Below, one piece after another: positions 13,001-16,000 of a stretch of DNA of 64,000 nt. The DNA is from Escherichia coli (lineage in GTDB: Bacteria > Pseudomonadota > Gammaproteobacteria > Enterobacterales > Enterobacteriaceae): NCBI RefSeq assembly GCF_044647545.1, contig NZ_CP172818.1, one strand, 5' to 3'. Each line of letters starts with the position of its first letter. Position 1 is the stretch's first letter. Made by a program: the position numbers.

Positions 13001-16000
13001 CAGACGCAGATCCAGAATCGCCTGAGCTTGCTGTTCGGTCAGGTAGTACAGACCATCACGCACGCCGAACTCTGGCTCCAGCCATTCCGGGCGCGCAGCA
13101 TCGTCGCCCGCACGTTCCAGCATCGCAGCAACGTTGCCCAGCTGCCACGGATTTGCAACCAGCGCGGTTTTCGCTTCTGCAGGCGTCGGCGCATGACGGA
13201 TCAGTTCGATGATCGGGTCGATGTTCGCCAGCGCCACGGCTAATGCTTCAAGGATATGAGCACGATCGCGAGCTTTACGCAGTTCGAAAATAGTACGACG
13301 GGTCACTACTTCACGGCGGTGACGAACAAACGCCGCGATGATGTCTTTCAGGTTCATGATCTTCGGCTGACCATGGTGCAATGCCACCATGTTGATACCG
13401 AAAGAAACCTGCAACTGGGTCTGGGAGTAGAGGTTGTTGAGCACAACTTCACCGACCGCATCGCGTTTCACTTCAATCACGATGCGCATACCGTCTTTGT
13501 CAGACTCGTCACGCAGCGCGCTGATGCCTTCCACGCGTTTTTCTTTTACCAGTTCCGCAATCTTCTCGATCAGGCGCGCTTTGTTTACCTGATACGGAAT
13601 TTCGTGGACGATAATGGTTTCACGTCCGGTTTTGGCGTCAACTTCTACTTCGGCACGGGCGCGGATATATACCTTGCCGCGACCGGTACGGTAAGCTTCT
13701 TCAATACCGCGACGACCGTTAATGATTGCCGCCGTCGGGAAGTCCGGCCCCGGGATGTGTTCCATCAGCCCTTCAATGCTGATGTCTTCATCATCGATAT
13801 ACGCCAGACAACCGTTGATGACTTCCGTCAGGTTGTGCGGCGGGATGTTGGTTGCCATACCTACGGCGATACCGGAAGAACCGTTCACCAGCAGGTTAGG
13901 AATTTTGGTTGGCATGACGTCCGGAATTTTTTCCGTACCGTCATAGTTATCAACGAAATCGACCGTCTCTTTTTCGAGATCAGCCATCAGTTCATGGGCA
14001 ATTTTCGCCAGACGGATTTCCGTATAACGCATTGCCGCCGCAGAGTCGCCGTCGATGGAACCGAAGTTACCCTGACCGTCTACCAGCATGTAACGCAGCG
14101 AGAATGGCTGCGCCATACGGACGATCGTGTTATAAACCGCCAAGTCACCATGGGGATGGTATTTACCGATTACGTCACCAACGACACGGGCAGATTTTTT
14201 ATAGGCTTTGTTCCAGTCATTGCCTAGTACGTTCATGGCGTAAAGTACGCGACGGTGTACCGGCTTCAGGCCATCTCGGACATCTGGCAGCGCACGGCCA
14301 ACAATGACCGACATCGCATAATCCAGATAGGAGCTCTTCAGCTCTTCCTCAATGTTGACCGGTGTAATTTCTCTCGCAAGGTCGCTCATCTAACCGCTAT
14401 CCCTCTACTGTATCCCGGATTCAAAGGTCGCAAATTATAACACAGCCGCGCAGTTTGAGGTAAACCTATACGCTTTATTCACATCCAATGCCTGATATAC
14501 TCGTTTGTCTTGCCAATTACGGAGTAGAAGTGCCAATGAATGCCGAAAAATCGCCGGTAAACCATAACGTAGACCACGAAGAGATCGCTAAATTTGAAGC
14601 TGTCGCCTCCCGCTGGTGGGATCTTGAAGGTGAGTTCAAACCGCTGCACCGCATTAACCCGCTGCGTCTGGGCTATATTGCCGAGCGTGCTGGCGGTTTA
14701 TTTGGCAAAAAGGTGCTCGATGTCGGTTGTGGCGGCGGCATTCTGGCCGAGAGTATGGCGCGCGAAGGTGCGACGGTGACCGGTCTGGATATGGGCTTTG
14801 AGCCATTGCAGGTGGCAAAGCTGCACGCGCTGGAAAGCGGCATTCAGGTGGATTACGTGCAGGAAACCGTGGAAGAGCACGCGGCAAAACATGCCGGGCA
14901 GTATGATGTGGTGACCTGCATGGAGATGCTGGAGCACGTCCCCGATCCGCAGTCAGTGGTCAGAGCCTGTGCGCAACTGGTGAAACCGGGCGGCGATGTC
15001 TTTTTCTCGACGCTTAACCGCAACGGCAAGTCATGGCTGATGGCGGTGGTTGGCGCGGAATATATTTTGCGCATGGTGCCCAAAGGCACGCATGATGTGA
15101 AGAAGTTTATTAAACCGGCAGAGCTGCTGGGCTGGGTGGATCAGACCAGTCTTAAAGAGCGACATATAACCGGGTTACATTACAACCCGATCACTAATTC
15201 CTTTAAGCTCGGCCCCGGCGTGGATGTGAACTATATGCTGCACACGCAGAATAAGTGAGGTTGTTGTTTGGATTCATCCGGCAACCGCGCCAATGCCTGA
15301 TGCGACGCTTGCCGCGTCTTATCAGGCCTACAAATGCTCTCCGTAGGCCAGATAAGGCGTTTACGCCGCATCCGGCAATAGTGATGGTCAGACAGCGATT
15401 ACCATTTCACCGTCATCGACAAAAACCCTGCCGTCTGGGCAAAATCATCACTCCCTTTCTGCCACGCCACGCTGCCGCGCAGGGACACTCGCTGACTGAT
15501 ATTGCCCGTGACTCCCACTTTTATTTCACCCCGTTGCTTCACCCCATCGTCACTGATAGTGCTGCCATCTTCTTCAATTTCCGTCGCATGGGGATCGTGA
15601 TAATAATTCAGATCTAATGTTGGTATGACATGAACAGCGGTACGCCATTCGCTGTGTAAACCCAGCCGCGTCTGAATATCATCACCCTGCGATTGTGACA
15701 CGCGCGCATGGTTAGCGGCGGTAAAATCATCCTGCTGCACGCCCTGATAAATCACCTGCGCCTGCGGTTCAATCACCACACCATGCCCCGGTAACCACTG
15801 ATACCCGGCTTCCAGCGAGGCGATAATCCCCGACGAATGGTAACGATCCACGCCATCGTCTTGTTCAGAAACATCATTGTTAAACCACGCATATTGCAGC
15901 CAGCTATCCAGCCAGACCCCCTGCTTCTGATTACCGTGCTGATACCAGCTTGAGGTCAGCCCAACGGCATAACCGTGGTTCTGGTTATCGGCGCGAGTTC

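Follow-up and report, generated by a model that had tools for sequence, protein, structure and literature searches.

The gyrA substitutions S83L and D87N of Escherichia coli are textbook material, as are their mechanism, fitness neutrality and epidemiology. Ser83 and Asp87 anchor a water-metal ion bridge, and it is through this bridge that the keto-acid group of a fluoroquinolone contacts E. coli gyrase; Leu83 and Asn87 remove both anchors, leaving an enzyme that is largely drug-insensitive and still functional. Among the lineages described with this pair, ST648, which belongs to phylogroup F, typically combines gyrA S83L/D87N with parC S80I and parE S458A (PMC8710580; PMC9685555). ST131-H30 and ST1193 have the same gyrA S83L/D87N and parC S80I as ST648; the parE markers differ, being I529L in ST131, L416F in ST1193 and S458A in ST648 (PMC8710580). 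For pandemic ST1193, the mutant gyrA and parC alleles are reported to have been acquired by recombination (PMC13127887).

How does the gyrA locus described here compare with these precedents? It lies in a 64-kb stretch of E. coli DNA, called the window throughout (all coordinates count from its first base), and carries the codons and amino-acid changes of the catalogued E. coli GyrA S83L+D87N double mutant. Against the K-12 backbone, the window allele adds D678E, A828S and 58 synonymous differences, while its resistance positions are the same as those of the catalogued mutant. Our account, in which we have high confidence, is that the two mutations arose in place, have been inherited since and would confer target-site resistance whose high level requires parC S80I; no sequence evidence within the 64-kb window contradicts in-place, inherited resistance.

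The gyrA gene and its codons 83 and 87

The features of the locus are listed below. The limits of the quinolone-resistance region (QRDR), codons 67-106, follow the conventional definition, and its coordinates are counted from the ATG that begins at 14389.

11762..14389, minus strand: gyrA coding sequence, DNA gyrase subunit A; 875 codons plus stop, intact
14141..14143, minus strand: codon 83, TTG (Leu), wild type TCG (Ser); changed base 14142, A on the plus strand, wild type G
14129..14131, minus strand: codon 87, AAC (Asn), wild type GAC (Asp); changed base 14131, T on the plus strand, wild type C
14072..14191, minus strand: QRDR, codons 67-106
14024..14026, minus strand: codon 122, catalytic tyrosine, intact; residues 119-125 are AMRYTEI
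12356..12358, minus strand: codon 678, GAA (Glu), K-12 GAC (Asp); lineage polymorphism, no resistance role
11906..11908, minus strand: codon 828, TCG (Ser), K-12 GCG (Ala); lineage polymorphism, no resistance role

In the ORF list, the minus-strand frame 11762..14389, with its ATG at 14389, is the sole long ORF over positions 14129-14143. Profile comparison identifies its product as GyrA: it scores 1305.6 bits against the gyrA equivalog NCBIfam TIGR01063 (cutoff 877) and falls below the cutoffs of the ParC models. When all PDB chains were compared with phmmer, the solved wild-type E. coli GyrA (PDB 6RKS chain A) aligned without gaps over residues 1-875, with 871 of the 875 residues identical; relative to this and other solved GyrA chains, the differences are limited to S83L, D87N, D678E and A828S. 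The gene contains no internal stops, its product has the C-terminal GyrA box QRRGGKG at residues 560-566, and its nucleotide sequence is 100% identical to the annotated gyrA of strain ECONIH1 and of many more genomes.

Two plus-strand ORFs, 12623..13243 (206 aa) and 13256..14227 (323 aa), lie antisense to gyrA; they are taken to be mechanical by-products of strong codon bias, not genes. Of the 5426 genomes in the E. coli collection, one lacks any gyrA match, and in one case the match falls on a record that is classified as a plasmid; both are probably oddities of assembly or classification.

On the plus strand, positions 14129-14143 read GTTATAAACCGCCAA; the reverse complement, TTG GCG GTT TAT AAC, encodes Leu-Ala-Val-Tyr-Asn. 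The initial annotation had read codon 83 as TTG and codon 87 as AAC, which is exact to the base, and the interval it gave, 14129-14143, spans precisely codons 83-87. Its residues 81-87, GDLAVYN, are also those obtained by translation when codons are counted from the ATG at 14389, and the alignment it had called for, of the 875-aa product with wild-type GyrA, places Leu and Asn opposite Ser83 and Asp87 without a gap. The presence of these target-site QRDR residues, in E. coli numbering, is confirmed, and their description as the classic quinolone-resistance substitutions holds. On the same backbone, the wild-type base at 14142 is found in CLSC36, and that at 14131 in both CLSC36 and M25631H, which carries S83L only.

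Origin of the two mutations

Do codons 83 and 87 stand out from the other differences in the gene? The gyrA of K-12 CETR1G40 (GAC at codon 87) served as the wild-type DNA reference. The window gyrA differs from it at 62 nucleotides, with 58 synonymous and four non-synonymous codons, a ratio that implies strong purifying selection on gyrA. The four are TCG to TTG at codon 83, GAC to AAC at codon 87, D678E and A828S. If four changed codons fell at random among the 875, both 83 and 87 would be hit with a probability of about 1.6e-5, and the same two changes make up two of the only four SNPs that separate the window from CLSC36 over 23.8 kb; on both counts, the changes at codons 83 and 87 are beyond chance. 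Another candidate reference, NZ_OZ465113.1 ('K-12 MG1655' K12_pMDL27), was dropped: its codon 87 is GCC (Ala), so that this laboratory K-12 record is a QRDR variant itself and cannot safely stand for the wild type.

Both codons were then reverted in silico (TCG83/GAC87), and the reconstructed allele was searched among complete genomes. It has an exact match in nine of them; because the reverted query kept D678E and A828S and matched these nine genomes, which are wild type at codons 83 and 87, at 100%, the two replacements are lineage polymorphisms. A single genome, M25631H (chicken meat), differs from the reverted allele by one base, its GyrA combining S83L with the wild-type Asp87; 43 genomes are exactly two mismatches away, 30 of which, among the matches listed, are 100% identical to the window gyrA. 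Wild type, S83L and S83L+D87N all occur on one gyrA backbone. CLSC36 (O1:H42; urine, cystitis) carries the reverted allele, and its four SNPs relative to the window are the two QRDR bases 14131 and 14142, one nonsense mutation in yfaS and one silent substitution in nrdA. No block of clustered differences around gyrA was found against CLSC36: gyrA and its flanks differ at the two resistance bases alone.

Could the resistant allele instead have come in from a different resistant lineage through homologous recombination, the route proposed for ST1193? Potential donors are plentiful in addition to that precedent: the 91-bp segment around codons 70-100, both mutations included, is shared without a difference by 1370 of the 5425 complete E. 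coli genomes of RefSeq, in many backgrounds, and this figure (at least 25%) is a lower bound, as other synonymous backgrounds fall outside the count. However, an imported allele does not fit a near relative such as CLSC36, which shares the backbone and differs in gyrA by just the two resistance bases, nor the nine genomes with the exact reverted allele and the S83L-only intermediate on the same backbone; a very short conversion tract over codons 83-87 alone is unneeded to account for the data. We therefore regard import as very unlikely. Three allele states on one backbone, with no linked synonymous block, support stepwise point mutation in place, that is, the derivation of S83L and D87N on the native allele; the evidence from the window thus favours a route different from that reported for ST1193.

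In the stepwise scenario, the lineage would have undergone two point mutations in its essential, chromosomal gyrA gene, one a C to T and the other a G to A transition, passing on its own allele from wild type to S83L and then to S83L+D87N. Quinolone selection would have acted in an ancestor of the ST648-type clone, with vertical inheritance since. The state of the sequence, the positions of the changes and their derivation on the native backbone can be read directly from the comparisons above, as can the frequency of the allele and, below, the resemblance to a lineage.

Lineage and other differences in the window

The initial annotation had expected a background other than K-12, and the 8-kb neighbourhood of gyrA bears this out, with about 95.7% identity to K-12 records and 100% to ST648-type isolates. 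Over its first 25 kb, the window matches ST648-type genomes, including a strain named 'ST648', at 100%, and at an identity of at least 99% both the 25 kb and the 8-kb neighbourhood match 62 genomes. The window gyrA is found at 100% identity not only in ECONIH1 (rectal swab) but also in IMT16316 (wild bird) and the strain named 'ST648', and a base-by-base comparison of the 64 kb with ECONIH1 gives one SNP and a few indels.

These identities suggest that the window comes from an ST648-type (phylogroup F) lineage. The label follows from near-identity to relatives: the match to the strain named 'ST648', the clade of 62 genomes at 99% or above, and ParE S458A in ECONIH1, a strain that carries both ParC S80I and ParE S458A as is typical of ST648. 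The MLST loci adk, fumC, gyrB, icd, mdh, purA and recA all lie outside the window, and the ST label rests on relatives for this reason. No sequence type for ECONIH1 was found in the literature, going by titles and abstracts; the strains of an IMT16316 paper are given as ST131 or ST648. ST131-H30 and ST1193, which share the gyrA and parC changes, have chromosomal backbones unlike that of the window.

The same comparisons bear on whether the DNA might have a laboratory source, namely a strain in which resistance to nalidixic acid or quinolones was selected or engineered. Laboratory strains with altered gyrA do exist, and the 'K-12 MG1655' record with Ala (GCC) at codon 87 is one of them. Yet the 8 kb around gyrA match K-12 only at about 95.7% and the natural isolates IMT16316, ECONIH1 and 'ST648' at 100%, the gyrA differs from that of K-12 in 58 synonymous codons, and the 64 kb are one SNP from ECONIH1, all of which makes a laboratory origin extremely improbable. 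Descent from a natural ST648-type lineage would account for the backbone, and the remaining differences can be set against it:

4767..9281, minus strand: yfaS (alpha-2-macroglobulin); premature TAG at codon 670, position 7274, where CLSC36 has CAG
15399..19156, minus strand: yfaL/ehaC (AIDA-I family autotransporter); 1-bp deletion in a CCC run at about 17007, relative to ECONIH1 and CLSC36
about 22159, downstream of nrdA: 3-bp deletion (GTG) in REP-like sequence GCCGGATGCGGCGTGAACGCCTTATC, relative to ECONIH1 and CLSC36
about 24543-24555, between inaA and glpQ: 1,879-bp deletion between 8-bp direct repeats CAGATAAA
58818, C-run at the 3' end of elaD: sole SNP relative to ECONIH1, A versus C
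62385-62399, near the 3' end of yfbM: deletion of about 25 bp; ragged alignment, endpoints uncertain

The premature stop in yfaS is common to ECONIH1, where the gene is annotated as a pseudogene, and is absent from CLSC36, which is wild type for gyrA. The four indels (1 bp in yfaL, 3 bp, 1,879 bp and about 25 bp) are private to the window: each is either seen in none of the 25 best-matching genomes or missing from both relatives compared base by base, so that the window belongs to none of the complete genomes sampled. The yfaL deletion shifts the reading frame near codon 717 and splits the gene into the ORFs 15399..16940 and 16952..19156; either true pseudogenisation or a homopolymer assembly error could explain it. 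The 1,879-bp deletion takes out most of an MFS transporter gene and a LysR regulator gene, both of which are kept by all 25 of the 25 best-matching ST648-type genomes. The same inaA-glpQ junction layout is usual in about 3,100 other E. coli genomes, K-12-like ones included; these are only about 98% identical to the window and so belong to other lineages, and the deletion seems to have recurred independently on the ST648-type backbone.

Some of the private indels could be assembly errors; might the substitutions at codons 83 and 87 be sequencing or assembly errors as well? An imperfect assembly is conceivable where several small indels, one of them in a CCC run, set the window apart from all close relatives. 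The changes at 83 and 87, however, replace bases and do not alter the length of a homopolymer, they coincide exactly with the two known resistance positions, and the same bases recur in dozens of independently assembled genomes; the chance that they are errors is negligible, and the QRDR substitutions are not in doubt.

Resistance level, hosts and meaning of the genotype

How resistant would a strain with this gyrA be? The initial annotation had called the pair the canonical high-level genotype, and two parts of that phrase fare differently: the pair is the classic one, but high-level resistance does not follow from it alone. Among isogenic derivatives of MG1655, the wild type has a ciprofloxacin MIC of 0.016 µg/ml, against 0.38 for S83L, 0.25 for D87N and 0.38 for S83L+D87N, and the MIC reaches 32 µg/ml when parC S80I is added to the pair (PMC2714960 Table 1); the fitness cost of this triple mutant is not significant (PMC2714960). 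The pair alone would thus be expected to lift the MIC by a factor of only about 24, to some 0.4 µg/ml: topoisomerase IV becomes the limiting target once gyrA is mutated, which keeps the rise small, and clinical high-level resistance is reached only together with parC S80I, with or without parE S458A. Of the 195 resistant clinical isolates of Huseby et al., 73% had S83L+D87N, and their laboratory-built triple mutant had an MIC of 16 mg/L (PMC5400412). The presence of the pair in most highly resistant clinical isolates might suggest that it suffices by itself, as the wording of the initial annotation, taken literally, would have it. Against this, the isogenic double mutant is no more resistant than S83L alone, and, as Huseby et al. 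state, clinical resistance takes more than any one mutation or gene (PMC5400412); the published isogenic data already refute sufficiency of the pair, and a requirement for parC S80I is the reading we retain.

Of the loci that bear on quinolone resistance, the 64-kb window holds gyrA; outside it lie parC and parE, the regulators of efflux marR, acrR and soxR, and whatever quinolone-resistance genes plasmids may carry. For the resistance phenotype and the state of parC and parE in the source genome, as for the ST648 label, we infer from relatives. Relative to the K-12 proteins, ECONIH1 has S80I and D475E in ParC and S458A and T172A in ParE, and its parC lies about 1 Mb from gyrA. D87N adds nothing to the MIC in a parC wild-type background, so its presence would predict that parC is already mutated, and ParC S80I and ParE S458A of ECONIH1 are consistent with this prediction. 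High-level resistance of the source strain may reasonably be expected from its relatives. As D87N brings no gain in MIC unless parC is mutated, a source strain with the pair and with unchanged parC and parE would imply an unusual evolutionary order; we consider this, or the alternative that the private deletions (the yfaL frameshift and the loss of the MFS transporter and LysR regulator beside inaA) mark an unsampled ST648 sublineage, very unlikely.

Who carries the allele? Of the 43 two-mismatch genomes, 34 have a human or clinical origin. The remaining nine comprise three from dogs, one each from a wild bird, a dolphin, a pig, wastewater and the environment, and one whose source is unlabelled. 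The initial annotation had described the lineage as drug-exposed and probably clinical. Its first part stands for the lineage, since the allele marks past quinolone selection in the lineage's ancestor, and the predominance of human and clinical sources fits the second; neither extends to the isolate itself, whose own drug exposure or clinical origin cannot be deduced from an allele that is clonal in wild bird, dolphin, dogs, pig, wastewater and environment.

The S83L/D87N pair of the window is a catalogued genotype in a known lineage, and it is ordinary; neither gyrase biology nor that of resistance gains anything new from it. Its worth as context for the other differences from K-12, which the initial annotation had put forward, is real, because the lineage is a non-K-12 one: these differences (about 2-4% divergence) are best taken as lineage polymorphism, not unusual events. 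The gyrA pair is useful as annotation context, identifying the DNA as that of a fluoroquinolone-selected, ST648-type extraintestinal E. coli lineage.
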